Below are positions 591 to 61,101 of a stretch of 64,000 nt of DNA, piece after piece; positions within the stretch are counted from its first letter, which is position 1, and the number at the start of each line of letters is the position of its first letter. This DNA comes from Candidatus Omnitrophota bacterium (GTDB taxonomy: Bacteria > Omnitrophota > Gorgyraeia > JAHIPI01), in contig JADHVZ010000001.1 of NCBI GenBank assembly GCA_016783745.1, positions 9,447-73,446 on the forward strand. The letters run 5' to 3'. The notes under the pieces are model-generated. The model saw nothing but the letters and a program-made list of their open reading frames with translations, was not told the origin of the DNA and searched no databases. A program made the translations under genes and the position numbers.

Positions 591-642
591 TAACACAACT
601 CCTTTCCGCATAAAGACTTGCGTCAGTCACCTGTGCATCTTT

Positions 643-2475: not shown

Positions 2476-2959
2476 CTTCCGCCTCTTCTATGGGAACCGG
2501 GAGTGTCTGGACGAAGACGACCTTTTCGCCTTGCAATGCCACTTTAACCTGATCGAAGTAGTCGTACATCGTTACGCCTTCCATCAGGTCGGAATTGATC
2601 TTTCCGCTCGCGGCCGGCTTACCGAGTATCTTTTCCATATCTTTCATCGTCATGCCGTATTTGAACTCTGTCGGCCTGAAGTCCGGCCACTGGAAGTAGT
2701 CCGGGAGCCTTTTTTGCGGCACAAATCGCAAAAACCTGCCGTTTGAGAAGGAAAAGCTTCTCTCGCAGCTAAAATATGTCCAGACCTCAACACGCTTTTC
2801 TGCGTCCATCAAAAGGGCAAAGATATCGGGATAGCCGAAGGCATCTACAAGTTTCTGCTGATCTTTTGACAGGCGGTCTTTTGTAAGGACGCCGCATCCC
2901 AGCACAATAAGCGCTATTACGACGGAAATGCAGATTGTGAAAATCAAAAATTTCTTCAT
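2465..2959 (-). CDS. Putative lipoprotein
   Basis: N-terminus MKKFLIFTICISVVIALIVLGCG has a lipobox-like LGC. It overlaps the downstream gene by 11 nt, so it is probably in the same operon. Confidence 0.45.
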   Translation of the reverse strand: MKKFLIFTICISVVIALIVLGCGVLTKDRLSKDQQKLVDAFGYPDIFALLMDAEKRVEVWTYFSCERSFSFSNGRFLRFVPQKRLPDYFQWPDFRPTEFKYGMTMKDMEKILGKPAASGKINSDLMEGVTMYDYFDQVKVALQGEKVVFVQTLPVPIEEAEDAR

Positions 2960-7952: not shown

Positions 7953-8474
7953 ATGTTACCCAGCCAAGAAATTATGAAGAAAACATTTATAATAGACGGA
8001 TACAACGTAATACATAAAATTCCGGAGCTGTGCGCTAAACTCGAAGAAAGCCTCGAAAGCGCTCGAGATGCTTTGGTAATAGAAATACAAAGTTGGAAAA
8101 GACGGTACGCTGACTCAAAGGCATATATTGTATTCGACGGAAAAAACGAAGACATTTTTGATGATCTGCCTACTCGGATATTAGGAATCGATTGTGTCTT
8201 TACCAGGTCCAAAGAATCCGCTGACGACCGAATAATAAGCATGGTGCGAAACGCGGAAGCCCCATCTCTTATAACTGTTATCTCAGATGACAACCAGGTG
8301 AGGAATGGCTGCAGGATGCAAGGGGCTCAAGTACAATATTCGTCTTTTATCAGCATAAATAAGAAAAAGCCCCACAGGCCGGTTAACCGCATCAACAATA
8401 TTGATAATAACATGCAAGAGCAGGAAATAACCGACTATTACAAGAAACATTTGATCAATAAAGGAATCCTATAG
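7953..8474 (+). CDS. YacP/Rae1-like NYN-domain (PIN-like) predicted ribonuclease
   Basis: FIIDGYNVIHKIPEL... is the conserved YacP-family start. An alternative start lies at MKKTF (7974). AT-rich gene. Confidence 0.6.
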   Translation: MLPSQEIMKKTFIIDGYNVIHKIPELCAKLEESLESARDALVIEIQSWKRRYADSKAYIVFDGKNEDIFDDLPTRILGIDCVFTRSKESADDRIISMVRNAEAPSLITVISDDNQVRNGCRMQGAQVQYSSFISINKKKPHRPVNRINNIDNNMQEQEITDYYKKHLINKGIL

Positions 8475-8665
8475 CAAAATATCGTAGGGTTTCCAGCTCT
8501 CCGCCACTCCCTATTCAATCTCATCGGAATTGTTGTAACCTATATATTCTCCAGCAACATATAACTGCGAAAAGAAACACCTACCGTCAGTTATCATCTG
8601 TCTCAGAATCCCTGTTTTTACCGCTATTGTTGGTAAACTGTTGGTAGAAATAGGAGGTGGTAGTT

Positions 8666-8833
8666 GTGAAAGCGATTATTTACGCCAGATGCAGAACAGA
8701 TGAAAGCAGGCAGGATGTGGAAGTCCAGTTAGGCCAGCTGAGACGAGAGTACGAGCAAGAATTTGAGTACGGTTCCGGGTATAAGGGTGATCAGCCTAAG
8801 CTAAAAGGCTGTATAGGGCAGATAAAAATGGGG
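8666..8833 (+). pseudogene. N-terminal fragment of a serine recombinase (resolvase/invertase); catalytic Ser replaced, then truncated
   Basis: VKAIIYARCRTDESRQDVEVQLGQLRREYEQEFEYGSGYKGDQPKLKG aligns to the resolvase N-terminus (AIGYARVSTDEQ...IFEDKASGKSTDRPGLK), with Arg where the nucleophilic Ser belongs. AGGAGG RBS and GTG start. The reading frame then runs into the convergent TPR gene. Confidence 0.45.
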
Positions 8834-8847
8834 CTATATATAATTTA

Positions 8848-10677
8848 TTATTTTACCCCCAATATTTTCTTTAATTCTTCGAGTAACTTAGGATTAATTT
8901 TACACCCCAGCGCTTTTGCTTGTAGTATATCTCTTAGACTTTTATCATATTCTTTTTTGATATAATAGGCAATCCCTCGGTTGTTATAGGCTAAAGCATG
9001 GTTGGGGTCGATTTCTATTACCTTATTGTAATCTAATAACGCCTGGTTGATGTTGCCTTGTTTTCGATAAAGCAGGCCTCGATTAAGGTAGGCTAAATCA
9101 CAATTGGGGTCGATTTCTATTGTCTTGTTGTAATCTAAGAACGCCTGGTTGATGTTGCCCTTACTTCGATAGGTATTACCTCGATTATAGTAGGCTAAAG
9201 CATAGTTGGGGTCGATTTCTATTCCCTTGTTATAGTCTAAGAGTGCCTGGTCGAGGTTGCCTCGGTCTTGATAAAGCAGGCCTCGATTATAGTAGGCTAA
9301 AGCATAGTTGGGGTCGACTTCTATTGCCTTGCTGTAATCTAAGAATGCCTGGTCGAAGTTGCCTTTCTTTTTATAGGCATTCCCTCTGTTGTTGTATGGT
9401 CTGGCTTTATGGGGAGATTTACAAGTTACATCATTCCATAGAGTAAGCTCATCTTTCCAGACAAAATTTCTATAATAAGTTAATATTGAATAAGAAGTAA
9501 CTATCATAAGTAGAATTATAACCACCTGCTTTAGGGCATTCTTTCCGAAAAGATAATACATGCCACTTACTATAAAAAGGCTATAACCAACGATGGGTAA
9601 ATAAAGCCTGTGTTCAAATATTACATCATCAAGAGGCACAATGCTTGATTCCGGCAATAAAGTTATAAAAAACCAGAAAATACCAAATGACAGTAGTCTA
9701 TATCTAGGGAATATACGGATTGCGCCCATTATAATTGCGGCCAGGATAAATAAACTGCCTAATGTATTTATATCCATTAAGTTCTTAGCTATTGGGTAGT
9801 CATAGTCCAGATTCTGGTTTAACGGCGCAAAAAGAAGCCTTATGTAAGTTAATATAACGCGAAATTGAGTTAAAAAATACGCCCCCCCTTTATTGAGAGG
9901 CTTGTCTATTAACCGCTGTATGCACATAAAGTTTTCAGACCTGGTAGAAAATAATAATAAAGGAATAATTAATATTGTAATCAGGAAATATAAGGCGTAT
10001 TTCCAGTTAGCATATCTTTCTATATTAAAGAAACAAAATTCACATAATAGTACTATTAAAGGTAAGGTCGCCGCGTTTTCCTTAGTAAACATGCTGAGTA
10101 TGCAGAAAACGTAGGAAAAAGCGTAAAAAAAAGGCCATTTTGAGGTAGCTTTATTATCTATCTGTAATAGCCTTGTCTTAATATAGAAACATAGTGAAAA
10201 AAGATAAAAGAATCCTACTAAAGAACTACTCCTTTGCCATATGTAAGTGACAGATTGTGTCTGAACAGGGTGGGTTACGAATATTAAGCCTACAAATAAA
10301 GCTATAGAATCAGCGTATTTAGAAATAGCGTTCTTCTTCATTGTAGGCGTAGAAAGGATAAGTATAGTCAGCCAGAATACTAGAATAGCCGAAGCTAAAT
10401 GGATAGCTGTATTAAAGACATGATAGGAAAATACATTAACTTTGGAGAAATGATAGTTTAAAGCAAAGGTAAGAATAGTGATAAACCTGGCGGGCCAGGC
10501 ATTCCAAATATTTCGCAGATTCCAAATGTCTCTTATGGCAAAATTATTAACTATACCAGATCCGTCATCAAAATGAAATGAGTTAAAAAAAGTATTGGAG
10601 TAGACTATAAACCCGAATAAAAGCAGTATGATGATACTCAGTAATTTATAATTTCGATTAAAAAATCTTGTTAACAT
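8848..10677 (-). CDS. GT-C fold membrane glycosyltransferase (PMT/TMTC-like, DUF1736-type) with C-terminal TPR repeats
   Basis: Multi-TM N-terminal region with FHFDDGSGIVNN in the first loop (the DD/DE motif of GT39-like GT-C enzymes). The C-terminus has more than six TPR units (AYYNRG.LY...G....A..DYNK.IEIDPN). Very AT-rich. Confidence 0.6.
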   Translation of the reverse strand: MLTRFFNRNYKLLSIIILLLFGFIVYSNTFFNSFHFDDGSGIVNNFAIRDIWNLRNIWNAWPARFITILTFALNYHFSKVNVFSYHVFNTAIHLASAILVFWLTILILSTPTMKKNAISKYADSIALFVGLIFVTHPVQTQSVTYIWQRSSSLVGFFYLFSLCFYIKTRLLQIDNKATSKWPFFYAFSYVFCILSMFTKENAATLPLIVLLCEFCFFNIERYANWKYALYFLITILIIPLLLFSTRSENFMCIQRLIDKPLNKGGAYFLTQFRVILTYIRLLFAPLNQNLDYDYPIAKNLMDINTLGSLFILAAIIMGAIRIFPRYRLLSFGIFWFFITLLPESSIVPLDDVIFEHRLYLPIVGYSLFIVSGMYYLFGKNALKQVVIILLMIVTSYSILTYYRNFVWKDELTLWNDVTCKSPHKARPYNNRGNAYKKKGNFDQAFLDYSKAIEVDPNYALAYYNRGLLYQDRGNLDQALLDYNKGIEIDPNYALAYYNRGNTYRSKGNINQAFLDYNKTIEIDPNCDLAYLNRGLLYRKQGNINQALLDYNKVIEIDPNHALAYNNRGIAYYIKKEYDKSLRDILQAKALGCKINPKLLEELKKILGVK

Positions 10678-10788
10678 AATAATCCATTATCAATAGTTAA
10701 AAGCGACAGTTCTATTCTTTTGCGATATTTATATATTATACCAAATTGCGCTTACTGTAAATATTTTTTTATCATTGCATAGCAAAAT

Positions 10789-10860
10789 GGGGACAGACAC
10801 TTTTTACATAATTAGGGACGAAGCCTAATTACTAAAGTGTCTGTCCCTATTTTATCGTAG
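10789..10860. repeat. Nested palindromic element copy 1. The outer stem GGGGACAGACACTTT pairs with AAAGTGTCTGTCCC. The inner stem is AATTAGG with CCTAATT.
   Basis: Read directly. Right flank is ATTTTATCGTAGAG. It lies in the divergent intergenic region between the TPR-GT gene and the beta-CASP gene. Confidence 0.8.
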
Positions 10861-11025
10861 AGTTAGATACTTTCTACTTACTTGAATTTCACCCCTTTCC
10901 ACCTTGCCAAAACCAGCCCGCAGGAGTAAAATAATTACTTGCCACAAACAGATCAGGGTGTTGCAACAGTATCTTGAGCCTAAGGTCTGATATAGCTAAC
11001 CAAAACAAACGGATTTTTCCAATAT

Positions 11026-12318
11026 ATGAAACTAACCATTCATCGCGGGACTCAAGAAATCGGTGGTAGCTGTGTAGAGCTAAACACAGGAAAGTCTCGA
11101 ATACTTATAGATCTCGGAATGCCGCTTGTAAATGATAAAAAAGAGTCTTTTGATTCAAAAACACTTACCAATAAATCTCCGGATGATCTTAAAAAACTAA
11201 AAATCCTTCCTGACATAAAGGGTCTGTATAGAGGTGAAGAAAAAGCCATAGACGGCATTCTTATTTCTCATTCCCATATGGATCATTATGGGTTTCTCAA
11301 GTTTGTGAATCCTGATATACCGATCTATATGAGTGAAGGCGCTAAGATGTTGGTCGAGATATCGGATATTTTTATTCCTCATAAAACGGGGAATCTTAAT
11401 GTAAAGACTATTGATAAAATAAAGAGTTTTGCTATAGGAGAATTTAAGGTCGATTCGTATCTGGCAGATCATTCAGCTTTTGACGCGCGTGCGTTCTTGA
11501 TCGAAGCTGATGGTAAGAGAATATTCTATTCAGGTGATTTCAGGGCCCATGGGAGGAAAAGCGTTCTATTCAAGCGTATGATCTCGCATCCACCGGAAGC
11601 TATTGATGCCCTGCTTATGGAAGGATCAATGATCGGAAGGAGTAATCAGGCCTATAAAGATGAAAATGCCATACAGTCCCGGATCGAAAAGATCTTAAAA
11701 TCCAGCAATAACGTAACTTTCCTGTTTACCTCATCGCAAAATATTGATAGGCTCGTCTCAGCGTACAAGGCATGTATTAAAACCGGACATATCTTCGTAA
11801 TAGACATTTATACAGCTTATATTCTGGACAAGCTTAGAAAAGTATCAAAGGGCATTCCGCAATTCAACTGGCGAAACATCAAGGTAAAGTTTTTGAAAAA
11901 CCAGGCCGACACACTGGCAAAGAAGGTATCAACAAAACTTCTTTATCATTACAATACACAAAAGATAGACATATTCGAGATAAACAGAAAGAAAAACAAG
12001 ATCCTTATGCTTGCGCGTGATAATTCGATTTTTCCCAAGATCATAAAAGGCATAGACGATCCCAGAGGCGCAACAGTCATCTATTCAATGTGGGGAGGCT
12101 ATTTAAACGACAGATTCCGCGACTTCTGCGCAAATAAAGGCCTTACAATCGAACAAGTCCACACAAGCGGCCATGCTACAGTTGAGGATCTGGAAGCATT
12201 TGCGAAGGCCATAAGCCCAAAAACGTTAATACCGATCCATACTTTTGAAGGACAGAAATACCCGGAGATGTTTGAAAACGTTAGAATCTTAAAAGACGGC
12301 GAGCTTTTTGAGATTTAA
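11026..12318 (+). CDS. beta-CASP family metallo-beta-lactamase-fold nuclease (RNase J / CPSF-like core, no KH domain)
   Basis: N-terminal GTQEIGGSCVEL (compare CPSF73 GQEVGRSC), MBL motif HSHMDHYG, ADHSAF...SGDF, and the C-terminal beta-CASP motif-C HTSGHA. Confidence 0.7.
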   Translation: MKLTIHRGTQEIGGSCVELNTGKSRILIDLGMPLVNDKKESFDSKTLTNKSPDDLKKLKILPDIKGLYRGEEKAIDGILISHSHMDHYGFLKFVNPDIPIYMSEGAKMLVEISDIFIPHKTGNLNVKTIDKIKSFAIGEFKVDSYLADHSAFDARAFLIEADGKRIFYSGDFRAHGRKSVLFKRMISHPPEAIDALLMEGSMIGRSNQAYKDENAIQSRIEKILKSSNNVTFLFTSSQNIDRLVSAYKACIKTGHIFVIDIYTAYILDKLRKVSKGIPQFNWRNIKVKFLKNQADTLAKKVSTKLLYHYNTQKIDIFEINRKKNKILMLARDNSIFPKIIKGIDDPRGATVIYSMWGGYLNDRFRDFCANKGLTIEQVHTSGHATVEDLEAFAKAISPKTLIPIHTFEGQKYPEMFENVRILKDGELFEI

Positions 12319-50663: not shown

Positions 50664-50708
50664 ATAGGGGACAGACACTTTTAGACATAAAAGTGTCTGT
50701 CCCCTATT
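50664..50708. repeat. Simple hairpin copy of the palindromic element (AATAGGGGACAGACACTTTTAGACATAAAAGTGTCTGTCCCCTATT)
   Basis: Read directly: 19-bp perfect arms with a 7-nt loop, between the DUF4870 gene and the radical SAM gene. Confidence 0.8.
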
Positions 50709-50710
50709 CC

Positions 50711-51643
50711 ATGAAAATGAAAAAATCCAAAATAGACATTTACAAATCGATGAAGTTCTGTACTATTTGCCCCAGGAAGTGCGGGGTGGATAGGACTGCG
50801 GGTAAAAGCGGATTTTGTAAGGCCGGCAGCAAAATAGAGGTCTACTCTGCCGATCTCCATTTTGGGGAAGAGCCGCCGATCTCCGGCACCAATGGTTCCG
50901 GGGCCATCTTTTTTAATCACTGTAACCTGTCCTGCGCGTATTGCCAGAATTATAGATTCAGTCAATTGAAGGATGGTAAAGAGTTCGAAATAAGCTCATT
51001 TGTCGATCTGATGCTATCCCTTGAGAAGAAGGGAGCGCATAACATCAATCTCGTTACACCTACGCATTACGCTGTCCAGATCGCAAATGCCGTGATCGAG
51101 GCAAGACGTAACGGCCTGAAAGTGCCTATTGTATATAATTCAAGCGGCTATGAGAAGGTAGATGCCCTTAAGATGCTTGATGGGCTGGTTGATATATATT
51201 TAGTTGATATGCGCTATGCTGATGACGGACATGCGATGAAATACTCTTCCTGCGGTAACTACGTTGAATCAAATGAACAAGCCGTAAAGGAAATGTACAG
51301 GCAGGTCGGCACGCTAAAGCTATCCGGATCCGGCATAGCTGAGAAGGGCATAATAATAAGGCATCTTATATTGCCGAATGATATCAGCGGTTCCGAAAAG
51401 ATCTTCAGATTCATAGCGAATCAAGTCGATACCAACACCTATATATCACTCATGAGCCAATACTATCCTGCCAACAGGGCATCCACACACAGAGAGCTTA
51501 AGCGCGGCATAAATAAATCGGAATACGATAATGCAGTGCGCCTCCTATATAAGTATAACCTTAATCAAGGCTGGGTGCAGGAGTTCACGGGAGGCTTTGT
51601 TGATTCAGGCTTTGCAGGCACCAATATTGAACCCGATCTCTAA
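50711..51643 (+). CDS. Radical SAM enzyme, PflX/YjjW-like (pyruvate formate-lyase-activating-enzyme-related). Start placed after the hairpin.
   Basis: N-terminal CTICPRKCGVDRTAGKSGFCKAG, the radical SAM CNLSCAYCQN (CxxxCxxC), and a glycine-rich SAM-binding segment. The ORF-track start at 50693 would lie inside the hairpin. Confidence 0.65.
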   Translation: MKMKKSKIDIYKSMKFCTICPRKCGVDRTAGKSGFCKAGSKIEVYSADLHFGEEPPISGTNGSGAIFFNHCNLSCAYCQNYRFSQLKDGKEFEISSFVDLMLSLEKKGAHNINLVTPTHYAVQIANAVIEARRNGLKVPIVYNSSGYEKVDALKMLDGLVDIYLVDMRYADDGHAMKYSSCGNYVESNEQAVKEMYRQVGTLKLSGSGIAEKGIIIRHLILPNDISGSEKIFRFIANQVDTNTYISLMSQYYPANRASTHRELKRGINKSEYDNAVRLLYKYNLNQGWVQEFTGGFVDSGFAGTNIEPDL

Positions 51644-51669: not shown

Positions 51670-51878
51670 AATTCGCGCGAAGCACGAATTTGTCCTGAGA
51701 ATACGACAAAGAGGAGTATTCGAAGGGCCACAATTCGCGCGAAGCACGAATTTGTCCTGAGAATACGACAAAGAGGAGTATTCGAAGGGCCACAATTCGC
51801 GCGAAGCACGAATTTGTCCTGAGAATACGACAAAGAGGAGTATTCGAAGGGCCACAAATTTTTGCACGCTCGAATTTG
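51670..51878. repeat. 62-bp tandem repeat x3.3, each unit containing two short hairpins, degenerate last unit
   Basis: Units begin at about 51670, 51732 and 51794 and are identical. The fourth unit is diverged (CACAAATTTTTGCACGCTCGAATTTG). Each unit contains AATTCG..CGAATT and GAATAC..GTATTC inverted repeats. Confidence 0.85.
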
Positions 51879-52008
51879 ACTTTTTTTAAAATTGCAGGTA
51901 TACTTCATATTACCTTGTCATATCTTGTATTAATATATATAAAATATAACAATTCGTAGAAAACTATACTTGATTTATTTGAATCTTTGATAATATGGAG
52001 GTATAACG

Positions 52009-52212
52009 GTGAAGAATAGTGTGATGACTGTCCGCGAAGTTGCCAGGTACCTCAGGATGAAGCCGGTCACTATATATAAACATGCCCAGGAGGGCAAGTT
52101 GCCGGCTTTTAAGGTAGGTTCGTCATGGCGCTTCAAGAAAAAGACCATAGACGGATGGATCGCCGGACAGGAAAAGGAAGAACTCGAGAAATTGGATCTC
52201 GCGGTAAAATAA
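52009..52212 (+). CDS. Excisionase-family (Xis/AlpA-like, MerR-superfamily) HTH DNA-binding protein
   Basis: VREVARYLRMKPVTIYKHAQEGKLPAFKVGSSWRFKKKTIDGWI matches the excisionase-family DNA-binding domain signature (TIGR01764-like). Confidence 0.6.
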   Translation: MKNSVMTVREVARYLRMKPVTIYKHAQEGKLPAFKVGSSWRFKKKTIDGWIAGQEKEELEKLDLAVK

Positions 52213-52263
52213 TGCTGAGCTAAACAACTGCTCAGCTTTTTTACTTTCATACAAAGGTTTAAC

Positions 52264-53511
52264 ATGAGTAAACGTATAGTTATAACCGGGATAGGTGTAC
52301 TAGCCCCGAACGGAATAGGTAAGGATGAATTCTGGAACGCGTTGGAGCAGGCGAGATCCGGAATAAAGCCGGTTACATTATTCGATACATCCACTACAAG
52401 GTCAAAACTGGCCGGGGAGATATCAGATTTTGATCCTGTTCAGATCCTGGGAAAGAAAGGCCTGCGTACTCAGGATAGGAGTACAAAGCTGGTCAATTCC
52501 GCCGCGAAACTCGCGCTGGACGATGCCGGATTCGAATATCCGATACCTGAAGATGAAGCGGCTAAATTTGGCGTGGCCCTGGGCTCCACGATGGGAAGCG
52601 TATGGTCAATAAGTGAATTTGACAAAGTAGCGCTTCGTGAAGGACCGGGGGCGGTAAATCCGGCGCTGTTTTCCAATACAGTCATGAATTCTCCGGCAAG
52701 CCAGATCTCGATCAGATTTAACATAAAGGGCTTTAACGCGACCATCTCCACAGGTTTTACTTCCAGTGCAGACGCGATAAGCTACGCTTATAATCTTATG
52801 AGATTCTACGACTATAAAGTTGTTTTAGCGGGCGGAGTTGAGGAGCTATGTGAACAAACATTTAAGGGATTTCATAAAATAGGCCATTTAGCCGGTTCAA
52901 GAGGATCCAAACCGGAATTGAATTGCCCTTTTGACAAGAGGCGAAACGGTATTGTTGTTGGTGAAGGTTCTGCTATTTTTATTTTGGAGGATCTGGAACA
53001 TGCCCGATCAAGAGGAGCCAGAATATATGCTGAAATTTTAGGCTATGGTACATCTTTTGACGTGAAAAGCAGGAATATATATAACCCTAAAGCGGAGGGC
53101 GCGGCGGAAGCTATTAAATTTGCTTTAGAGGACTCAAAGACAAAACCGGAAGACATTGACTACATATCCGCAAGCGCGAATTCCACACTAGATTGCGATG
53201 TTATGGAGACAAGGGCCGTAAAAAAAGCGTGCGGCGAGCATGCGAAAGAGATACCGATAAGCAGCATTAAGAGTATGATAGGAGAGACTTTTTCGGCATC
53301 AGGCGCTATGAATGTTGCCGCAAGCCTTGGTGTATTTGAAAAACACTTTTTACCGCCGACGATAAATTATGAGAAGCCAGACAAGCGCTGTGACCTGGAT
53401 TTTGTGCCCAATAAGGCGCGAAGGAAAAATATTAATATAGCACTTGTTAATGCGTTTAGCCCTACGGGAAATAATACAACTTTAGTATTAGCAAGAAGCA
53501 AGGAGAATTAA
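52264..53511 (+). CDS. Ketosynthase-fold protein lacking the Cys-His-His catalytic triad (chain-length-factor / KS-beta-like)
   Basis: Thiolase/KAS fold throughout, but the active-site TACATG position reads STGFTSS, HGTGT reads SANSTL, and GHS/GHT reads GET. Confidence 0.7.
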   Translation: MSKRIVITGIGVLAPNGIGKDEFWNALEQARSGIKPVTLFDTSTTRSKLAGEISDFDPVQILGKKGLRTQDRSTKLVNSAAKLALDDAGFEYPIPEDEAAKFGVALGSTMGSVWSISEFDKVALREGPGAVNPALFSNTVMNSPASQISIRFNIKGFNATISTGFTSSADAISYAYNLMRFYDYKVVLAGGVEELCEQTFKGFHKIGHLAGSRGSKPELNCPFDKRRNGIVVGEGSAIFILEDLEHARSRGARIYAEILGYGTSFDVKSRNIYNPKAEGAAEAIKFALEDSKTKPEDIDYISASANSTLDCDVMETRAVKKACGEHAKEIPISSIKSMIGETFSASGAMNVAASLGVFEKHFLPPTINYEKPDKRCDLDFVPNKARRKNINIALVNAFSPTGNNTTLVLARSKEN

Positions 53512-53512
53512 T

Positions 53513-54256
53513 ATGCTGTTAAAAGATAAGGTAGCGATAATAAGCGGCGGATCAAGGGGCATAGGCAGGGCCGTGGCGCTGGAACTGGCAAATGAGGGAG
53601 CCGATATAGCTTTCAATTATCTAAAGAGCGAAGACAGGGCTCTTGAAGTTAAGAAGGAAATAGAATCAAAGGGAAGAAAAGCGCTTATCTTTAAGTCTGA
53701 CGTGAAGAACTTAGCTCAAATGAAGAATATGGTGAACGAGACGAAAGAGAAATTTGGTAGACTGGATATTATTGTGAACAACGCGGGGATATTACGGGAT
53801 AAAGCATTAATGCTGATGGGGGTAGAGGACTGGGAGGATGTTATTTCAACCAATTTATCCGGCGCTTTTAACCTTATAAAAGCCGCAATAGTCACGTTAA
53901 TGAAGGAAAAACAGGGTAATATCATTAATATAACATCAGTAGCCGGAATAAAAGGCATGCCGAGACAGGTAAATTATTCTGCCAGTAAAGCGGGACTGGT
54001 GGGCATGACCAAGGCTTTAGCTAAGGAAGTTGCCTCGTATAATATAAGGGTGAATGCCATAGCGCCGGGTTATATAGATACCGACATGGTAGGCGGATTG
54101 AAGGAAAACCATAAAACAGAGTTAATGAAAAGGATCCCCTTAAATAGATTTGGGACCCCTGATGAGGTAGCAAAGGTAGTGACTTTTTTAGCATCAGAAC
54201 GATCTAAATATATAACAGGGCAAGTAATATCAATTGATGGCGGATTGGCCATATAA
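53513..54256 (+). CDS. fabG: 3-oxoacyl-ACP reductase (FabG-type SDR ketoreductase)
   Basis: Cofactor motif GGSRGIGRA, NNAG, and catalytic S...YSASKAG (YxxxK). Confidence 0.8.
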   Translation: MLLKDKVAIISGGSRGIGRAVALELANEGADIAFNYLKSEDRALEVKKEIESKGRKALIFKSDVKNLAQMKNMVNETKEKFGRLDIIVNNAGILRDKALMLMGVEDWEDVISTNLSGAFNLIKAAIVTLMKEKQGNIINITSVAGIKGMPRQVNYSASKAGLVGMTKALAKEVASYNIRVNAIAPGYIDTDMVGGLKENHKTELMKRIPLNRFGTPDEVAKVVTFLASERSKYITGQVISIDGGLAI

Positions 54257-54269
54257 ACGGAGGTATAGT

Positions 54270-54521
54270 ATGCCTGAAATCTACTCCGAAACTTTAGAAA
54301 AAGATCTGCGGGCTATAGTTGCCGATATTGTCGAGATCGACGAGGGGAATATTACATCTGAGGCTAACTTCGTGGAAGATCTGGGGATGGATTCTATGAT
54401 GGCCCTGGAGATCCTGGCTACTGTGGAGAAAAAGTATAAGCTTAAGATCCCCGAAGAAAATCTTACAAAGATGACAAGCTTAAAGCAAGTAGTCGAGCTT
54501 GTTAACGGTTTGTTAAAATAA
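54270..54521 (+). CDS. Acyl carrier protein (start at MPEIY after GGAGG; the ORF track starts at 54234, overlapping fabG)
   Basis: Phosphopantetheine attachment motif DLGMDSMMALEI (the DSL/DSM Ser). Confidence 0.75.
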   Translation: MPEIYSETLEKDLRAIVADIVEIDEGNITSEANFVEDLGMDSMMALEILATVEKKYKLKIPEENLTKMTSLKQVVELVNGLLK

Positions 54522-54535
54522 AAAGTTAAAATATT

Positions 54536-55756
54536 ATGAATAAGCGTGTAGTAATAACCGGATTGGGAGTTATATCATCGATTGGAATCGGCAAAGAGGA
54601 TTTCTGGAATAATCTTATTGCCGGGAAATCCGGCATAAGCGATGTGACGACTTTCGATACCTCTAAATATGATAACCACAAAGGCGGCGAAGTAAAAGAT
54701 TTTAATCCATCAGATTTTATTTCTCGTAAGCATATAGCTGAGATGGGAAGGGCATCACAATTTGCAGTTGCAGCTTCGCAATTAGCACTTGATGATGCCA
54801 AGATGCACACCTTAGAAGCAAAAAAGGCTCGAGCCGGGGTGATAGTTGGCACAACCATGGCAGATGCTCAGGCCATAGAACAAATAGACAAGTATTGGAT
54901 TGATAAAAGTGAAGATGAAGTATGGGCAACAAATATTGTTAAATATCCAAGCAATGTTATAGCCGATAATGTAGGATACTATTTGGGGACACAGGGACCA
55001 AATTATGTGCTTCCTAATGCTTGTGCTGCAGGTAATTATTCTATAGGTTATTCTTTTGATCTTATAAGAGCTGGAAAGACTACCATTATGCTGGCTGGTG
55101 GTTCTGAGCAATTTTCAAGAATTACTTTTACTGGATTTAGCCGTCTATTTGCGATGTCTCCTGATCGGTGTCAACCCTTTGACAAGAATCGAAAGGGCAT
55201 GATTGTAGGCGAGGGAGCTGGCATATTGGTTTTAGAGGAATTAGAGCATGCAAAGAGAAGGGGTGCTACAATGCATGCCGAAGTACTGGGATACGGGTTA
55301 AGCTGCGATGCCCACCATATGACTGCGCCAAGTGTAAAAGGCATAACTTCGGTTTTGGAAAATGCTATGAAATTTTCAGATATAAGAAAAAATGATGTTG
55401 AATTTATCTGTACACATGGTACTGGGACTCCCGCCAATGATAGGGCTGAATGCCATGCCATGAAAAATGTTTTTGGAGAAAAATTCAAAGAGATTCCTGT
55501 AAATTCAATAAAGTCTATGCTTGGCCATACCATGGGAGCAGCAAGTGCGATAGAGTCAATAAGTACAATTTTGGCAATAAAAAATGGTATCATTCCACCA
55601 ACGATAAATTATGAGATATCCGATCCTGAGTGTGAGTCAGTCGACTGCGTAGCAAATGAAGCTCGTGTGAAAAAAATAAAAATAGCGCTAAATAATGCTT
55701 TAGCTTTCGGCGGCAATAACGCATGCATAGTTTTTAAAAAAATACAAAATTTATAA
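54536..55756 (+). CDS. Beta-ketoacyl-ACP synthase (active KS, FabF/KS-alpha-like)
   Basis: Catalytic Cys in PNACAAGN, His in THGTGTPANDRAE, and Lys/His in NSIKSMLGHTMGAAS. Confidence 0.8.
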   Translation: MNKRVVITGLGVISSIGIGKEDFWNNLIAGKSGISDVTTFDTSKYDNHKGGEVKDFNPSDFISRKHIAEMGRASQFAVAASQLALDDAKMHTLEAKKARAGVIVGTTMADAQAIEQIDKYWIDKSEDEVWATNIVKYPSNVIADNVGYYLGTQGPNYVLPNACAAGNYSIGYSFDLIRAGKTTIMLAGGSEQFSRITFTGFSRLFAMSPDRCQPFDKNRKGMIVGEGAGILVLEELEHAKRRGATMHAEVLGYGLSCDAHHMTAPSVKGITSVLENAMKFSDIRKNDVEFICTHGTGTPANDRAECHAMKNVFGEKFKEIPVNSIKSMLGHTMGAASAIESISTILAIKNGIIPPTINYEISDPECESVDCVANEARVKKIKIALNNALAFGGNNACIVFKKIQNL

Positions 55757-55757
55757 A

Positions 55758-56879
55758 ATGCCTAAATTTGCTTTTATAGCCCATCCCATAACGACAGAAC
55801 ATCTATATGAAATTTACAGCGGTTTTGCTGGTAAAATACTATCTTTTTTCCCGAAAAATATGCTTAAAGAATTATTGCTTAGACTTCCGCCTGTTAGTTT
55901 TGGAGTATGTAAAAATGTAAAATCATCAGAAGGAAAAACTATAGAAGGAGAAGGATTCCTTTTTCTTTTATTGCCAGAGCAGATAGCGATGCTCGACGAG
56001 AAATTTGTTCTAGACAAGATAGCCGCCACTATTAAAAAAGCCAAAGAGTCAGGTGCGCAGATTGCCGCGCTGGGCGGTTTCGCATCGGTAGTTGGTAATG
56101 AAGGAGAGAAGTTAGCCAAGCAAGTTAATGGTATAGCGATTACAAGCGGTAACACATGTACAGCAGCCTTGACTATACAAGGCATTCTTAAAGCAGCTTT
56201 AATTTTAGATGTGAAAATAGAAAATACTCATATGACAGTTATAGGAGCAACAGGTGATATAGGTAGTATTTGCTCAAAGATTTTTGCCAAAAAAGTAAAA
56301 AAATTAAATATAGTAGCAAGAAGGCAGGATCGATTATCCAATTTTGCTAACGCATTAAGAAGGAGTGGAAGCGCAGAAGTAGAGCTATTTAAACGTACAT
56401 CCGATGCCATAAAAGGCGTTGATATTATTCTGAGCACGACTAGTTCATTGACAACTTTGATCGAACCAGAATATTTAAAACCTGGAGCAATTGTTTGCGA
56501 TGTTTCTTTGCCTGCAAATATTCCCAAGGAAATAGTAAATATAAGGAAGGATATATTGGTATTTGAGGGTGGCCTGGCGAAATTGCCTTATTCAAAGGAG
56601 ATCAAAGGCAAAAATTGGAACAGATTACTGCCTGGTGATAGGACGTATGGTTGCTTGGCAGAGGCAATGCTTTTGTCGTTTGAGAATAGACTGGAGAACT
56701 ATTCGATTGCAAGGGGAAATATAACTGAAGAAAATATACAAGAAATATGTGGCTTATTAAAAAAACATTCTTTTGAAGTATCCGATTTTTTCTGTGGGTA
56801 TAAGTTTTTCACAGAAAAGGACTTGGAAGAGATAAAGAAATGTAAAGTGAAGGGAAATAATTATGCAGGGGTCCTTTAA
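55758..56879 (+). CDS. Acyl-ACP reductase (AAR) homolog, the fatty-aldehyde-forming long-chain acyl-[ACP] reductase family
   Basis: Collinear matches to cyanobacterial AAR from memory: FAFIAHP (FGLIGHL), AALGGFASVVG (SALGGFTSII), TSGNTCTA (TTGNTHTA), VIGATGDIGS (VVGATGDIGS), ARRQDRL (ARNQERL), and the catalytic-Cys region YGCLAEAMLLSFE (FACFAEAMLLEFE). Confidence 0.6.
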   Translation: MPKFAFIAHPITTEHLYEIYSGFAGKILSFFPKNMLKELLLRLPPVSFGVCKNVKSSEGKTIEGEGFLFLLLPEQIAMLDEKFVLDKIAATIKKAKESGAQIAALGGFASVVGNEGEKLAKQVNGIAITSGNTCTAALTIQGILKAALILDVKIENTHMTVIGATGDIGSICSKIFAKKVKKLNIVARRQDRLSNFANALRRSGSAEVELFKRTSDAIKGVDIILSTTSSLTTLIEPEYLKPGAIVCDVSLPANIPKEIVNIRKDILVFEGGLAKLPYSKEIKGKNWNRLLPGDRTYGCLAEAMLLSFENRLENYSIARGNITEENIQEICGLLKKHSFEVSDFFCGYKFFTEKDLEEIKKCKVKGNNYAGVL

Positions 56880-59004
56880 TCCATTTTTCATTCCATCCTT
56901 TATTGCATCGCTATTACTACTTTTTTTGGGAGTGTTTGTTTATTCGAGGAATAAAAAATCGTTAGTTAATGTTTTATTCTCGTTAGAATGTTTCGTGTCT
57001 TTTATATGGCAGTTTTGCTATGCTATGATGTATTTATTTTCCAATGATGAACAGCTAGCAGCATTTTGGATGAAAATAGGTTATGTGGGCGTAATCTACA
57101 TTTCAGTTTTTTATTACCATTTTATTATAGAATTTTTTGAAAGAAAGAAGGAAAGGATCATTGTCTATATTTCATACGGCATTGCTACCGTATTTGTTTT
57201 TTTTCATCTTACAACCAATTTGTTTACAAACGGAGTAATAAAATATTTTTGGGGGTACTATCCACGAGCATCTGTCATACATCCGTTTTTTTTGGTGTTT
57301 TTTATAGGTCTAATATGTTTAATCATAACTCATTCATTTATGGGGTTCTTGAATAGAGAGAAACTTTTTCACGATAGGAGAAAAGAGCAGGTCAAATATC
57401 TTTTTTGGGCATATTTTTTGTACGCACCAGCTTGTGTCGACTATATAGCAAATTATAATATTACGTTCTATCCGTTTGGCTACGTATTTTCAACAGCGTT
57501 TCTTGGTATTATCGCTTATGCTATTGTCAAACATCAACTTATGAATATTGAAGTCATTATACGCCGCGCGGTCGTGTTTACAGGATTATTTGCCGCGGCA
57601 TACGGAGTATTTGCTTTCTTTACATCACTGACTCAAGATGTGTTTCAGAATATTACCGGTGGAAATAGATGGGCGGTGTTTGTTCCTTCTATATTGCTAA
57701 TTGTGTTGGCATTGCGGCCACTGGAGAATTTTTTGGTCAGGATAACAGACAGGTTCCTATTTCAGAAAAAATATGATTATAGAGAATTACTACGCGCTCT
57801 TTCGCACGAAGTCATAACTATTATGGATCTCAACAAACTTACGAAGAGGATCGTTGATGATCTCGTAAATATAATGAGGGTTGAGAGCTGCGCTATCATG
57901 TTGTATGACAAGAATAAAGATGTTTATGATATTATTGCGGCCAGGGGGATAAAGGGCGGAAGTATATCATTCTCAAGGGATAACCAGACCATCACATTTC
58001 TTAAGACAGCTCATTTACCTATCAAGAAAAATGAGCACATTGACAAGATGGGTGAGAAGGGAACTATAAAGGAGGACATGAAGAAACTTGGCGCTGAATT
58101 TATCTTGCCTCTTATAGTGCATGATGAGCTCTTAGGCCTCATCAGCCTGGGCATGAAAAAGTCAGGAGAGGAATACAACCAGGACGATATTGCTATATTG
58201 GAATCTCTGACAGGGACAGCGTCGATCGCTATTAGTAACGCTCAGTATGTTGTCAATACTATGGAGCTTGAAGCGGAGGCGGCGCAAAGAGAGAAGATGG
58301 CCGTTGTCGGTACTCTGGCGGCAGGAATAAATCATGAGATATGTAATCCTTTAGGAATAGCGAGGGGGCAGTGCGAAGTCTACATATTAAATCAGAGAGA
58401 AGGGCTGTATGTCAATAAGCCCAAGGATGAGCAGATCGCCGAAGCCATGAAAGTCATGGAAAAAGTATTGCGTGAAACTGACAGGGCAACCGCGATCACT
58501 AAGAAGCTTTCAAGCTTTGCCAAACCGTCTAAAGGTGAGATATCGGAAAATGTTAAAATAGAGGAAGAGCTGGAAGAGGTCATAGCTTTGGTGGATCACG
58601 AGCTTAAACTGGGAAAGATAGATCTGAACTTGAATGTCCCGGATGATCTACCTCCTATAAGGTGTGACCGTAAACAATTACAGCAAGTATTATTTAACAT
58701 CATAAGAAACGCGGGCCAGGCCATAGGCGGCAAAGGAACGATTACTGTAGACATCAAGACCATTGAAGATAAGATCAGAATTCACATAAAGGACACAGGT
58801 CACGGTATATCTAAGGATAAGCTATCCGAGATCTTCAATCCATTCTATACTACTAAAGACCCGGGCAAGGGTACCGGCCTCGGGCTTTTTATAGTGCGTC
58901 AGCTTGTGGAAAGGAATAAGGGCAGGATCATAGTAGGCAGTGAAGTCGGAAAAGGCACCACATTTACATTGGAATTTCCGGCTACAGAGAGGGTGAAGTT
59001 ATGA
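56863..59004 (+). CDS. Membrane sensor histidine kinase (N-terminal 7TM sensor, GAF, HisKA, HATPase)
   Basis: Seven hydrophobic helices in the first ~230 aa, a GAF-like middle, H-box AAGINHEICNPLG, and N/G boxes (DTGHGISKD, GKGTGLGLFIV). It overlaps the AAR gene end by 17 nt. Confidence 0.75.
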   Translation: MQGSFNPFFIPSFIASLLLLFLGVFVYSRNKKSLVNVLFSLECFVSFIWQFCYAMMYLFSNDEQLAAFWMKIGYVGVIYISVFYYHFIIEFFERKKERIIVYISYGIATVFVFFHLTTNLFTNGVIKYFWGYYPRASVIHPFFLVFFIGLICLIITHSFMGFLNREKLFHDRRKEQVKYLFWAYFLYAPACVDYIANYNITFYPFGYVFSTAFLGIIAYAIVKHQLMNIEVIIRRAVVFTGLFAAAYGVFAFFTSLTQDVFQNITGGNRWAVFVPSILLIVLALRPLENFLVRITDRFLFQKKYDYRELLRALSHEVITIMDLNKLTKRIVDDLVNIMRVESCAIMLYDKNKDVYDIIAARGIKGGSISFSRDNQTITFLKTAHLPIKKNEHIDKMGEKGTIKEDMKKLGAEFILPLIVHDELLGLISLGMKKSGEEYNQDDIAILESLTGTASIAISNAQYVVNTMELEAEAAQREKMAVVGTLAAGINHEICNPLGIARGQCEVYILNQREGLYVNKPKDEQIAEAMKVMEKVLRETDRATAITKKLSSFAKPSKGEISENVKIEEELEEVIALVDHELKLGKIDLNLNVPDDLPPIRCDRKQLQQVLFNIIRNAGQAIGGKGTITVDIKTIEDKIRIHIKDTGHGISKDKLSEIFNPFYTTKDPGKGTGLGLFIVRQLVERNKGRIIVGSEVGKGTTFTLEFPATERVKL

Positions 59005-59375
59005 AGAGGCCGAAGATATTGACTATAGACGATGAGATGGGTTTTGTTGATATGATAAAAAACTATTTTTCTCTGCGCGGATATGACGTATTCACAGCTC
59101 TGAGAGGCGCTGCCGGATTGTATATCATCGAACAGGAAAAGCCTGATGTGGTTTTAATCGATTTCAAGATGCCGGAAATAGACGGGGATCAGATCTTCCG
59201 GCAGATGAAGAAGATCCACCCTGAAGGAAAGGCTATTATGATAACCGCGTTCAGGGATGAGGGGGGGACTGAAAAGAGATTATTAAATATGGGGGTTTAC
59301 GCTTATTTTGAAAAACCGATCACATCCATGAAGGATCTTGAGGCAACGATAAAAAATGCGGTTACACAAAAATAG
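59001..59375 (+). CDS. Stand-alone receiver-domain response regulator
   Basis: ILTIDDE, VVLIDFKMP (Asp phospho-acceptor) and IMITAF. No output domain. Start overlaps the kinase stop. Confidence 0.7.
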   Translation: MKRPKILTIDDEMGFVDMIKNYFSLRGYDVFTALRGAAGLYIIEQEKPDVVLIDFKMPEIDGDQIFRQMKKIHPEGKAIMITAFRDEGGTEKRLLNMGVYAYFEKPITSMKDLEATIKNAVTQK

Positions 59376-59380
59376 AGGCG

Positions 59381-59767
59381 GTGATTAAAATGATCAAAGT
59401 TTTAGTGGTAGATGATGAGCAGGAGATATGTAATTTTGTAAGGGATTTTTTCAAGGAAAGAGGCATTGAGGTCATAACCGCCTTAAACGGGGAAGAAGCT
59501 CTTGAGATGATAAAGAACGAGGAAGAGCTTACAGTGCTTCTTGATATCAGGATGCCTAAAATGGGCGGTATGGAGGCGTTACGCCGCATAAAAAAAGAAA
59601 AACCGCGCTTCAAGGTGATCATGGTCACATGCATCGATGACATTGAGAAGATGGAAGAGGCTAAGAGATGCGGCGCCGAGGCTTACTTAACAAAACCTTT
59701 AGTCCTTAAAGAGCTGCTTAAAGTTGTCATGAATAATGTGCCGGGTAATGACAAGAGCGGAAAATGA
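59381..59767 (+). CDS. Stand-alone receiver-domain response regulator
   Basis: VLVVDDE, VLLDIRMPKMGG and IMVT. No output domain. Confidence 0.7.
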   Translation: MIKMIKVLVVDDEQEICNFVRDFFKERGIEVITALNGEEALEMIKNEEELTVLLDIRMPKMGGMEALRRIKKEKPRFKVIMVTCIDDIEKMEEAKRCGAEAYLTKPLVLKELLKVVMNNVPGNDKSGK

Positions 59768-61101
59768 AGAAGGATAAGAAAAATAAAAATAATTGGAAAG
59801 AAATACAGAATCAGCTTATCAAAAAATGCCTGGATGTCAAGCCGCATTTTACGCCTTCCGGCCGCTTGAAGACCACAGATAAGCTCAATTACAGGGAGGT
59901 GATCGAGAAGGCGTCGCGAAGCATGATCCGCTTTAAGAAACCTACGCGCCTTATACGCATGATAGTGCGCATAATAGCTGAGCAGGTAAGGGTTCTTCAT
60001 ACAGGGGTCTTATTATATAGAGAAAAGAATAATTCCTATGTCCTTATAGACAGCAAAGGTGAGGAAGGGAAGAGGCTTCCCATCGGATATGTAAGACTAC
60101 CTTTAGATAGTCCGCTGATAACCGCATTTATGGAAAAAAAGTCATTTTTGATAGACTCACACGGCGCGCTTCTTCTCGAAAAGATAACGAAAACGCTTAA
60201 TGACGCGGATTTATTGAAAAAACAGATGGGGATGGAGCACAAGATCAAGAGATTAAAGTCTGAAATGGATATATTACGTTCTGAAGTCTGTATCCCGGCA
60301 TACTACAAAAGAAAGTTACTTGGAATATTAATTCTGGGGCCGAAGCTTTCCGGAGAAAAATATAATGATGATGAGATAGGCTTTTTCGCTACTTTAGCGA
60401 ATGACGTGGCGATGGCGATCACGAATTCCCAGCTTATAACAAGCCTTCAATCAAAAGTAAAAGAGATAGGTGTCCTTTATGAAAAGGAAAGACGGCTTTT
60501 TATCCACACCTCAATAGCCCTGGCCGCCGCAATCGACGCGAGAGACCCGTATACTCACGGTCATACGTCGCGTGTTACCCACTATTCTCTTAAAATAGCG
60601 GATGAGCTAAAGCAGGCTCCTGAAATAATGGATTATGAGAATTTCAGGGAGACGCTTCACATAGCGTCTCTTCTGCATGATATCGGTAAAATAGGGGTGC
60701 GGGACAATATACTGAATAAAGCCGATGCGCTTACCGGCGAGGAATACATAGAAGTCAAAAAGCACGCGGACATCGGCGCTGCCATATTAAGCCCGATAAA
60801 AGAACTGGGCGGTATCATAGAGATTGTCAGGGCCCATCATGAAAGATTTGACGGCACCGGATATCCTGGCGGCTTAGAGGCGGATGAGATCCCGTTTCCT
60901 TCGCGGATAATCTCCGTAGCGGATGTTTTTGACACGGTAACCACAGACCGTCCTTATAGAAAGAAAATACCGGACGCGGATGCCGTAAAAGAAATCGAGA
61001 AAAATTCAGGAACACAGTTTGATCCGCTGGTCGTACAGGCATTTGTCGATGCGTACAATAGGGGGAAGGAATTTTTAAACCCGACTTATTCCGGCTACTG
61101 A
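59764..61101 (+). CDS. GAF plus HD-GYP domain protein (putative c-di-GMP phosphodiesterase)
   Basis: HD motif LHDIGKIGV and HHERFDGTGYPGG (the GYP signature). The N-terminal half is GAF-like. Confidence 0.75.
   Translation: MKKDKKNKNNWKEIQNQLIKKCLDVKPHFTPSGRLKTTDKLNYREVIEKASRSMIRFKKPTRLIRMIVRIIAEQVRVLHTGVLLYREKNNSYVLIDSKGEEGKRLPIGYVRLPLDSPLITAFMEKKSFLIDSHGALLLEKITKTLNDADLLKKQMGMEHKIKRLKSEMDILRSEVCIPAYYKRKLLGILILGPKLSGEKYNDDEIGFFATLANDVAMAITNSQLITSLQSKVKEIGVLYEKERRLFIHTSIALAAAIDARDPYTHGHTSRVTHYSLKIADELKQAPEIMDYENFRETLHIASLLHDIGKIGVRDNILNKADALTGEEYIEVKKHADIGAAILSPIKELGGIIEIVRAHHERFDGTGYPGGLEADEIPFPSRIISVADVFDTVTTDRPYRKKIPDADAVKEIEKNSGTQFDPLVVQAFVDAYNRGKEFLNPTYSGY

Follow-up and report, generated by a model that had tools for sequence, protein, structure and literature searches.

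A putatively chain-length-factor-like, triad-less ketosynthase of the amxFabFmut type in an Omnitrophota genome

In anaerobic ammonium-oxidising (anammox) bacteria, the putative ladderane Cluster I encodes the ketosynthase (KS) amxFabF2 and the triad-less amxFabFmut, which co-purify; those of K. stuttgartiensis and B. fulgida were inactive singly, and as a pair decarboxylated malonyl-acyl carrier protein (malonyl-ACP) and formed acetoacetyl-ACP (bioRxiv 10.64898/2026.05.19.726425). According to the same preprint, Phe135, Thr138 and Val139 of amxFabFmut line the acyl tunnel of the live subunit, mutations of Phe135 and Val139 alter the chain-length preference, and amxFabFmut also contacts the ACP. 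Here we describe the gene at positions 52264-53511 of a 64,000-nt stretch of a Candidatus Omnitrophota metagenome-assembled genome (MAG), hereafter referred to as the window (NCBI GenBank assembly GCA_016783745.1, contig JADHVZ010000001.1, positions 9,447 to 73,446 of the forward strand). By analogy with the anammox pair, its product is very probably a catalytically dead subunit resembling a chain-length factor (CLF), which would form an obligate heterodimer with the KS encoded at 54536-55756 and shape the working site of that enzyme.

Classical CLFs (KS-beta), such as the actinorhodin CLF (1TQY chain B), are likewise inactive KS homologs that pair with an active KS and shape its tunnel, and Bisang et al. 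reportedly showed in 1999 that they use a Gln at the nucleophile position for decarboxylative priming. The CLFs of highly reducing type II polyketide synthases (PKSs), with the pairs Iga11-Iga12 for ishigamide and ApeO-ApeC for aryl polyenes, also lack the Cys-His-His triad, as can be seen for Iga12 in a published alignment (bioRxiv 10.64898/2026.05.19.726425). Triad-less FabF paralogs of K. stuttgartiensis, Kuste3606 and Kuste2805, were already tabulated in 2009 (Rattray et al., PMC2649909). The protein described here does not represent a new kind of inactive KS, since its family was noted at that time and characterised in 2026 (bioRxiv 10.64898/2026.05.19.726425).

Catalytic positions of the 52264-53511 product

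The gene in question (referred to as dead KS), its putative tunnel-forming segment, and the ACP and KS genes downstream are located as follows.

52264..53511, + strand: dead KS, 415 amino acids (aa), putatively CLF-like, amxFabFmut family (from Pfam KS domains, PDB match and site mapping)
52594..52713, + strand: helix-loop-helix of the dead subunit (residues 111-150), which holds Phe136, Thr139 and Val140
54270..54521, + strand: ACP, 83 aa, amxACP-like, with the phosphopantetheine-attachment Ser42 in the motif GMDSM (PF00550, 1.5e-14; start codon taken from the call at L081)
54536..55756, + strand: active KS partner, 406 aa, amxFabF2-like, with Cys163, His294, His331 and the gate Phe391

In line with the initial annotation, the product of 52264-53511 aligned over its full length with FabF-type enzymes, and both Pfam KS domains were complete (PF00109 over residues 3-247, 1.8e-34; PF02801 over residues 255-370, 4.5e-28). 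Its score with the fabF equivalog model TIGR03150 was 372.5 bits, under the curated cut-off of 493.75, and because the triad is absent as well, the protein fails canonical fabF equivalog membership. Catalytic positions were mapped via HMMER alignment to B. subtilis FabF and via MAFFT alignment with FabF, Iga11, amxFabF2 and amxFabFmut. Both alignments agreed, and neither contained a gap within ~20 residues of the mapped sites. The position of the nucleophilic Cys is taken by Phe165 (codon TTT, 52756-52758; motif ISTGFTSS), that of the first catalytic His by Ser304 (53173-53175), and that of the second catalytic His by Glu341 (53284-53286); the active-site Lys is kept as Lys336, and the gating Phe position is Pro400. 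The loss of the Cys and the replacement of the second His by Glu were thus read correctly from the start. The first His is indeed lost too, but the Asn that had been named as its replacement is Asn306, located two residues past Ser304 at the conserved Thr of the HGTGT motif. It had also been suspected that a mis-registered indel might hide a Cys or Gln at the nucleophile position; neither residue was found there in the HMMER or MAFFT alignment.

A stretch with the sequence GSRGSKPE was considered as an insertion specific to the dead subunit and rejected, as the stretch is of FabF-like length and a deletion there is common to the partner KS and Iga11. An AlphaFold2 model of the dead subunit (33 close homologs) reached a mean pLDDT of 49.9 and a pTM of 0.43 and was not used.

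The best solved relative of the dead KS was chain C of 9S5H (E = 1.1e-112, 49% identity, aligned residues 3-413), corresponding to amxFabFmut (KustE3606/Broful02170; chain C of both 9S5H and 9S5I), the inactive half of the amxFabFhet heterodimer. Alike over their full length, the two proteins share the Glu at the second His, the kept Lys and the tunnel Phe/Thr/Val (Phe136, Thr139 and Val140 of the dead KS being equivalent to Phe135, Thr138 and Val139 of amxFabFmut). They also fall in the same clade (100/100 bootstraps), and each is encoded together with an amxFabF2-like KS and an amxACP-like ACP. On the other hand, amxFabFmut has Val or Thr at the nucleophile position, Asn at the first His and Arg at the gate, where the window protein has Phe, Ser and Pro, and its hosts are anammox bacteria instead of an uncultured member of Omnitrophota represented by a MAG. 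Judged by sequence, the window protein is an amxFabFmut-type CLF-like subunit, that is, a member of a known family in a new phylum and a different operon context. Published precedent for the Cys-to-Phe substitution is provided by Kuste2805, listed as 'non-canonical FabB' in Table 2 of Rattray et al. (PMC2649909). Compared by the tabulated residues only, Kuste2805 resembles the window protein in Phe at the Cys, Asn at the +2 Thr, the Lys, and Glu at the second His, but has Asn at the first His and a kept gate Phe instead of Ser and Pro.

Classical CLFs, which were set apart by PDB ranking and residue pattern rather than by direct sequence alignment, carry Gln where the window protein carries Phe165. 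No CLF chain occurred among the 60 best PDB matches of the dead KS, all of which were active KS or FabF proteins (such as the act KS-alpha at 1.4e-63 and Iga11 at 3e-61) apart from 9s5h_C. Moreover, a classical CLF gene adjoins that of KS-alpha in an aromatic PKS cluster, whereas the dead KS gene lies upstream of the KS gene with fabG and acp between them, and its neighbours are housekeeping, reductase and signalling genes, with no cyclase or aromatase gene nearby. Also in distinction from classical CLFs, the dead subunit groups with FabF and not with its partner, although weakly so (72/100). The highly reducing type II PKSs have a discrete ketoreductase, as found here, but also a discrete dehydratase, which the window lacks; and they make polyenes, whereas the window cluster ends in an acyl-ACP reductase and related loci include a PDH-like flavoenzyme.

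Conservation of the dead subunit and pairing with the active ketosynthase

Relatives were sought by scanning one genome per species with two N-terminal peptide patterns, so that the taxonomic range obtained is a lower bound. This yielded 538 confirmed loci encoding relatives of the dead KS, spanning three phyla, and the best 80 of these 538, ranked by similarity to the dead subunit, were used for the neighbourhood, residue and tree comparisons. The 80 loci belong to Omnitrophota (including the complete genome of Ca. Velamenicoccus archaeovorus), Nitrospirota/Thermodesulfovibrionales and anammox Brocadiales (Planctomycetota); automatic 'uncultured Planctomycetia' labels on some MAGs in the locus set could not be confirmed. 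A Candidatus Omnitrophica MAG has an annotated protein of identical sequence, and a further comparison revealed 120 homologs at 68-83% identity, nearly all from Omnitrophota.

The loss of the catalytic residues reflects neither chance nor decay, since Phe165 is invariant in 120/120 of these close homologs and relatives are present at 538 loci. With all catalytic residues gone and a score below the fabF equivalog cut-off, the protein could be taken for a decaying, functionless paralog, a pseudo-enzyme nearing loss. However, its gene has an undisturbed reading frame, with fabG beginning 2 nt past the stop codon, most relatives are free of frameshifts and stop codons, and across 78 dead-subunit sequences conservation reaches 97% or more at 38 positions. 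Furthermore, antiSMASH 'ladderane' clusters occur in MAGs of several phyla, including Omnitrophota, and the Omnitrophota ones were reported to be transcribed (bioRxiv 10.1101/2022.12.20.521206), the identity of these clusters with the cassette described here not being confirmed. Decay is hardly credible on these grounds, and we regard it as effectively refuted by the conservation data.

In a neighbour-joining (NJ) tree of 161 sequences (distance-based, unrooted, 100 bootstraps), 78 dead subunits, including the window protein and amxFabFmut, formed one clade with 100/100 support, and the partner KSs formed a separate clade (93/100). Two further groupings, both weak, drew the dead clade to FabF (72/100) and the partner KSs to Iga11 (71/100), in agreement with the structural neighbours reported for the anammox proteins (bioRxiv 10.64898/2026.05.19.726425).

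The Cys-His-His triad was found in 0/76 relatives of the dead subunit, whereas 69/69 partner KSs have the full triad and the gate Phe. At the Cys position the 76 relatives carry F, Y, M, I, V or E, never Cys and never Gln, which together with Phe165 of the window protein bears out the early observation that the Gln of classical CLFs is lacking; Gln at this position was seen only in some distant cluster representatives. The first-His position varies among S, T, C, N, G and A. The second-His position is Glu or Asp in 76/76, the Lys336 position is Lys in 76/76, and Asn306 is kept in 63/64 non-Planctomycetota relatives, with Tyr in the named anammox proteins. Finally, the three tunnel residues are kept throughout the three phyla (Phe136 in 76/76, Thr139 in 75/76 and Val140 in 73/76).

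Conservation also differs in its distribution along the two proteins. Residues 136-150, corresponding to the second helix of the helix-loop-helix, form the best conserved block of the dead subunits (mean of 0.82 versus 0.50 in the partners), whereas the active-site blocks score 0.85-0.92 in the partner KSs versus 0.59-0.74 in the dead subunits. This pattern indicates a shift of selection in the dead subunits, away from the active site and onto the helix-loop-helix. An apparent higher overall conservation of the dead subunit than of its partner was dismissed as a ranking artefact, the loci having been chosen by dead-subunit similarity (family-wide, 51% versus 57%).

The constancy of Asn306, Lys336 and Glu/Asp341 might alternatively point to a remodelled pocket that is itself active, either as a non-canonical malonyl-ACP decarboxylase, as an acyl 'parking' site, or as a coupling enzyme, a role once proposed for Kuste3606 (Rattray et al., PMC2649909). 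In support of this, much more distant relatives, both standalone and fused, still show the N..K....E pattern while their residue at the Cys position varies freely, the second tunnel of the homolog bound polyethylene glycol (PEG) in the crystal, and the homologous heterodimer decarboxylates malonyl-ACP, the responsible subunit not having been dissected (bioRxiv 10.64898/2026.05.19.726425). However, both His residues needed for KS-type decarboxylation are lost and the Gln of classical CLFs is missing, while the nucleophile position drifts as that of a filler would, and the first-His position drifts as well. Moreover, neither homolog subunit was active alone, and electrostatic docking placed no ACP at the tunnel of the dead subunit (bioRxiv 10.64898/2026.05.19.726425). 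As the Lys-Glu pair is also more simply explained as a structural salt bridge, an active pocket seems improbable, and we retain a function of its own for the Asn-Lys-Glu pocket as a weaker second reading.

A heterodimer of the dead KS with the KS of 54536-55756, the interpretation that we prefer, is suggested by structural relatives, gene neighbourhood and natural fusions. The best PDB match of the partner KS was 9s5h_B (1.1e-143, 54% identity), followed by Iga11 (6kxd_A; 1.6e-96, 43% identity), so that a single crystallised heterodimer, 9S5H, supplies the closest solved relatives of both the dead KS (chain C) and the partner KS (chain B). The original proposal of an inactive KS serving as partner or gatekeeper of the KS at 54536 is thus supported. 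The three best PDB matches of the ACP were 7qv0_D, 7auf_A and 9s5i_E (2e-17 to 4e-16, with E. coli ACP at ~1e-10), which we take as anammox ACPs because 9s5i is the amxFabFhet complex and the FabZ chain of 7qv0 is the best match of the cluster FabZ. Presence and absence of neighbouring genes were counted over the 46 loci with at least 4 kb of flank on each side (34 non-anammox and 12 anammox), and in 45/46 of these the partner KS adjoins the dead KS.

In a search of 1.84 billion cluster representatives, a wider set of standalone proteins was found to share the pattern x-x-N-x-K-E plus F..TV, and natural fusions of a KS with a degenerate KS (~800 aa, with the F..TV motif) were numerous among the 150 best representatives. 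These KS-CLF didomain proteins resemble the window pair in their intact N-terminal KS and in the degenerate triad and F..TV motif of their C-terminal half, although the halves are covalently joined and only ~30-37% identical to the window protein over the matched stretches. They provide independent, Rosetta-stone-type support for the two KS halves acting as a pair. Representatives P0121, P0124 and P0127 and ~50 others are KS-KS fusions of this type, in which the degenerate, F..TV-bearing KS comes after the intact one. In the case of fusion P0270, one cluster member is labelled as a Candidatus Helarchaeota (archaeal) MAG, for which a binning artefact or transfer is possible.

Could the dead KS instead work alone, as a homodimer or monomer that binds acyl-ACP as gatekeeper or regulator without being a KS subunit? 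Its gene comes first in the operon, two genes apart from the KS gene, and the S. brodae homolog crystallised as a homodimer (bioRxiv 10.64898/2026.05.19.726425). In that homodimer, however, the helix-loop-helix was disordered, and the protein alone showed neither activity nor crosslinking (bioRxiv 10.64898/2026.05.19.726425). The near-obligate co-occurrence with the partner KS, the existence of natural KS-CLF fusions, and the fact that the most conserved block is the very segment contacting the partner's tunnel argue further against a standalone role, which we consider very unlikely.

Several points nevertheless weigh against the proposed heterodimer. The case for the window's own two proteins is drawn from homologs and sequence, and heterodimer formation, the need of both subunits for activity, and the part played by Phe/Val in the tunnel would all be carried over from proteins that are 49% and 54% identical. 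The KS genes are separated here by fabG and acp, unlike the adjacent anammox pair, and the S. brodae protein formed its homodimer when expressed alone. In vitro, the homologous pair gave acetoacetyl-ACP only, with no further elongation (bioRxiv 10.64898/2026.05.19.726425). Asn306, Lys336 and Glu341 are kept in the dead pocket far beyond the clade, which could mean residual function. Most related loci also carry FabZ and PDH-like genes, both of which are missing from the window, and the pathway here would thus be incomplete or split. Lastly, a proxy for electrostatic asymmetry (net charge of the helix-loop-helix and the interacting helix, dead versus live) gave no consistent signal; this proxy was judged uninformative, as it gave no signal even for the B. 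fulgida pair that underlies the preprint's idea of heterodimer specificity.

Starting from the directly observed loss of the triad, family membership, synteny and conservation pattern, we infer the following role for the product. With Phe165 in place of Cys, the dead subunit would be unable to accept an acyl chain, and with Ser304 and Glu341 replacing both His residues it would be unable to decarboxylate malonyl-ACP by the known KS mechanism. It would instead complete and shape the single working active site of its partner, with the helix-loop-helix (~111-150; Phe136, Thr139, Val140) walling the partner's acyl tunnel and setting the chain lengths that are elongated, and it would probably help to form the surface on which the dedicated ACP (54270-54521) docks. 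The Lys336-Glu341 pair, like the bulky hydrophobic side chain now found at the former nucleophile position, plausibly just fills and stabilises the disused pocket. In the initial annotation the protein had been considered as a possible purely structural partner; the partner role fits these data, but the wording is too weak, as in the homolog the dead subunit both contacts the ACP and lines the tunnel. If it behaves like the anammox pair, the heterodimer would self-prime by converting malonyl-ACP to acetyl-ACP and then condense to acetoacetyl-ACP, so that FabH would not be needed. FabG (53513-54256) would carry out ketoreduction. The window encodes no dehydratase or enoyl reductase, and these two steps would depend on genes located elsewhere. 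The reductase encoded at 55758-56879 would release the finished acyl-ACP as an aldehyde.

Operon and neighbouring genes

From the dead KS gene to an HD-GYP gene, the genes are tightly packed and all on the + strand. Apart from those already given, the features of the region are as follows.

50693..51643: radical SAM protein, 316 aa, weak Pfam and NrdG-like matches, upstream of the cluster
52009..52212, + strand: 67-aa helix-turn-helix protein that resembles an excisionase by eye, its gene immediately preceding the dead KS
53513..54256, + strand: FabG-type 3-oxoacyl-ACP reductase, 247 aa, starting 2 nt past the dead KS stop
55758..56879, + strand: acyl-ACP reductase (AAR)-like protein, 373 aa, starting 2 nt past the partner KS stop
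56863..59004, + strand: 7TM-GAF histidine kinase, 713 aa, with a 17-nt overlap with the reductase gene (Pfam HisKA_7TM, GAF, HATPase_c)
59001..59375, + strand: receiver protein, downstream of the 7TM-GAF kinase
59390..59767, + strand: receiver protein, downstream of the 7TM-GAF kinase
59764..61101, + strand: HD-GYP protein, after the two receiver proteins

FabG scored 313.5 bits with TIGR01830 (cut-off 297.75) and matched Pfam adh_short_C2 at 6e-72. The AAR-like protein matched the NCBIfam models for the N-terminal part of PigE (1e-51) and AcACP_reductase (4.6e-36), both under their cut-offs, and the PDB entries 4ppm (1.4e-28) and 6jzq (7.7e-24). It contains the nucleotide-binding motif GATGDIGS and a Cys299 that aligns with Cys294 of cyanobacterial AAR, which we take to be the acyl-enzyme nucleophile. 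Reductive release of the product as an aldehyde is therefore probable from its sequence features.

The kinase, receiver and HD-GYP genes are likely co-transcribed with the cassette. A HisKA_7TM kinase was present in the flanks of 2/12 anammox loci and of 26/34 non-anammox loci, in the latter usually just downstream of the cassette, and its position beside most non-anammox cassettes suggests a hard-wired link of the lipid pathway with membrane or cyclic di-GMP (c-di-GMP) signalling.

Upstream of the dead KS, the open reading frame (ORF) for the helix-turn-helix protein showed 72-85% identity by tblastn to upstream small ORFs of the related loci L001 and L002, and its family occurs upstream of the dead KS in 16 related loci. 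The gap between this ORF and the dead KS contains, at ~52216-52250 and ~20 nt before the dead KS start, a hairpin (7-bp stem, 9-nt loop) and a T-run. The helix-turn-helix protein may be a regulator and the hairpin a terminator or attenuator; whether the ORF belongs to the unit is uncertain. Further upstream, a perfect tandem repeat (51670-51857; 62 bp x 3.0 copies, 100% identity), each 62-bp unit of which has the GC-rich hairpin AATTCGCGCGAAGCACGAATT, lies between the radical SAM gene and a promoter-like TTGACT-17-TATACT at 51876-51904. The radical SAM gene itself was rejected as a member of the cluster, as it has no counterpart beside the KS pair in the 80 loci and its Pfam match is weak. Near the start of the window the G+C content falls from 0.50 (1-4000) to 0.37 (8001-12000), most of the window being at 0.40-0.49.

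The arrangement differs from that of anammox Cluster I, in which the dead-KS gene directly follows that of the KS instead of coming first with fabG and acp in between. Cluster I also has a B12-radical-SAM enzyme, which the window cluster lacks, having FabG and the AAR-like reductase, and it encodes amxFabZ and a PDH-like flavoenzyme, neither of which is found in the window. Using tblastn, no amxFabZ, PDH-like or Brocadia B12-radical-SAM gene was detected within the 64-kb window, and the 5' flank beyond the window held nothing relevant to these missing genes. Past the 3' end of the window, ~17 kb beyond the cluster, methyltransferase, NAD_binding_4/epimerase-family and nitroreductase-family genes stand in a row (L081:18980-20666). 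In the clusters of the nearest relatives, a nitroreductase-like ORF (by sequence reading) is present between the KS and the PDH-like gene, and on this basis the missing part of the pathway may be located at this downstream site.

Related loci and the cassette outside anammox bacteria

When the neighbouring genes in the 80 loci were clustered, a shared core emerged: dead KS, KS, ACP, FabZ and a PDH-like protein of the flavin amine-oxidase family. The FabZ of these clusters shares 37-53% identity with amxFabZ, which (as 7qv0_A) is also its best solved relative. Most related Omnitrophota and Nitrospirota loci contain both FabZ and the PDH-like protein, and the window locus is by comparison a reduced version of the cassette, as judged from gene content. 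FabG was found at 30/34 non-anammox versus 0/12 anammox loci, and a thioester reductase (AAR-like or the non-homologous NAD_binding_4 type) at 14/34 versus 0/12. Conversely, the B12-radical-SAM enzyme was present at 12/12 anammox loci and at two non-anammox loci, the copies there being 28-29% identical. These two copies of a B12-binding radical SAM protein beside the KS pair (L037:6508-7800 and L046:9813-11123, E ~1e-48 to 1e-50) come from one Omnitrophota and one Nitrospirota locus, and possibly represent an intermediate form.

With regard to the reductases, the NAD_binding_4 ('male sterility'/FAR-type) enzyme was found at L006, L011, L012, L015, L018, L028, L033, L044, L050, L063 and L064, and the AAR/PigE-N-like enzyme in the window and at L002, L003, L009, L013 and L014, with a few loci carrying both types. 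L028, the Ca. Velamenicoccus locus, encodes the dead KS, FabG, ACP, FabZ, KS and FAR. The non-homologous replacement between AAR-like and FAR-type enzymes among loci suggests that reductive release is the conserved last step. A third KS of ~430 aa ('KS3') was observed just downstream of the pair at L008, L010, L039, L040, L045, L051, L056, L065 and L069; it keeps all three residues of the Cys-His-His triad, shares 25-29% identity with the partner KS, and also matches the Pfam family ACP_syn_III.

The literature to August 2026 treats amxACP, amxFabZ, amxFabF2 and amxFabFmut as specific to ladderane producers (including bioRxiv 10.64898/2026.05.19.726425). Besides the antiSMASH clusters mentioned above, the other hint of a wider distribution in the searchable literature is a remark of Rattray et al. 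on Desulfotalea (PMC2649909). Both Nitrospirota and Omnitrophota (Ca. Velamenicoccus archaeovorus among the latter) have homologs of these four proteins together with the PDH-like enzyme, but no close homolog of the B12-radical-SAM enzyme. By sequence, the 'ladderane' core cassette is thus not confined to anammox bacteria and is widespread outside them. We tentatively raise a further possibility, which we hold to be rather doubtful, namely that Cluster I, instead of being an 'anammox-specific' invention, derives from an older cassette, which would make a reduced lipid in Omnitrophota and Nitrospirota. If this were true, the Omnitrophota/Nitrospirota lipid could be, for example, a chain-length-defined and possibly unsaturated aldehyde or alcohol, and by subtraction it would chiefly be the B12-radical-SAM enzyme that accounts for the ladderane-specific chemistry.

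As regards the protein, the advance is modest, in that a just-described type of chain-length factor of fatty acid synthase (FAS) is extended, by sequence, to another phylum, Omnitrophota. The family comparison points to its constant features, namely the Glu at the second His, the Phe-x-x-Thr-Val motif of the tunnel and the kept Lys; which residue stands in for the Cys is incidental. For the ladderane field, these loci offer a subtractive comparison and possibly more tractable organisms or genes for reconstitution, and they flag an uncharacterised lipid pathway in two poorly known phyla.

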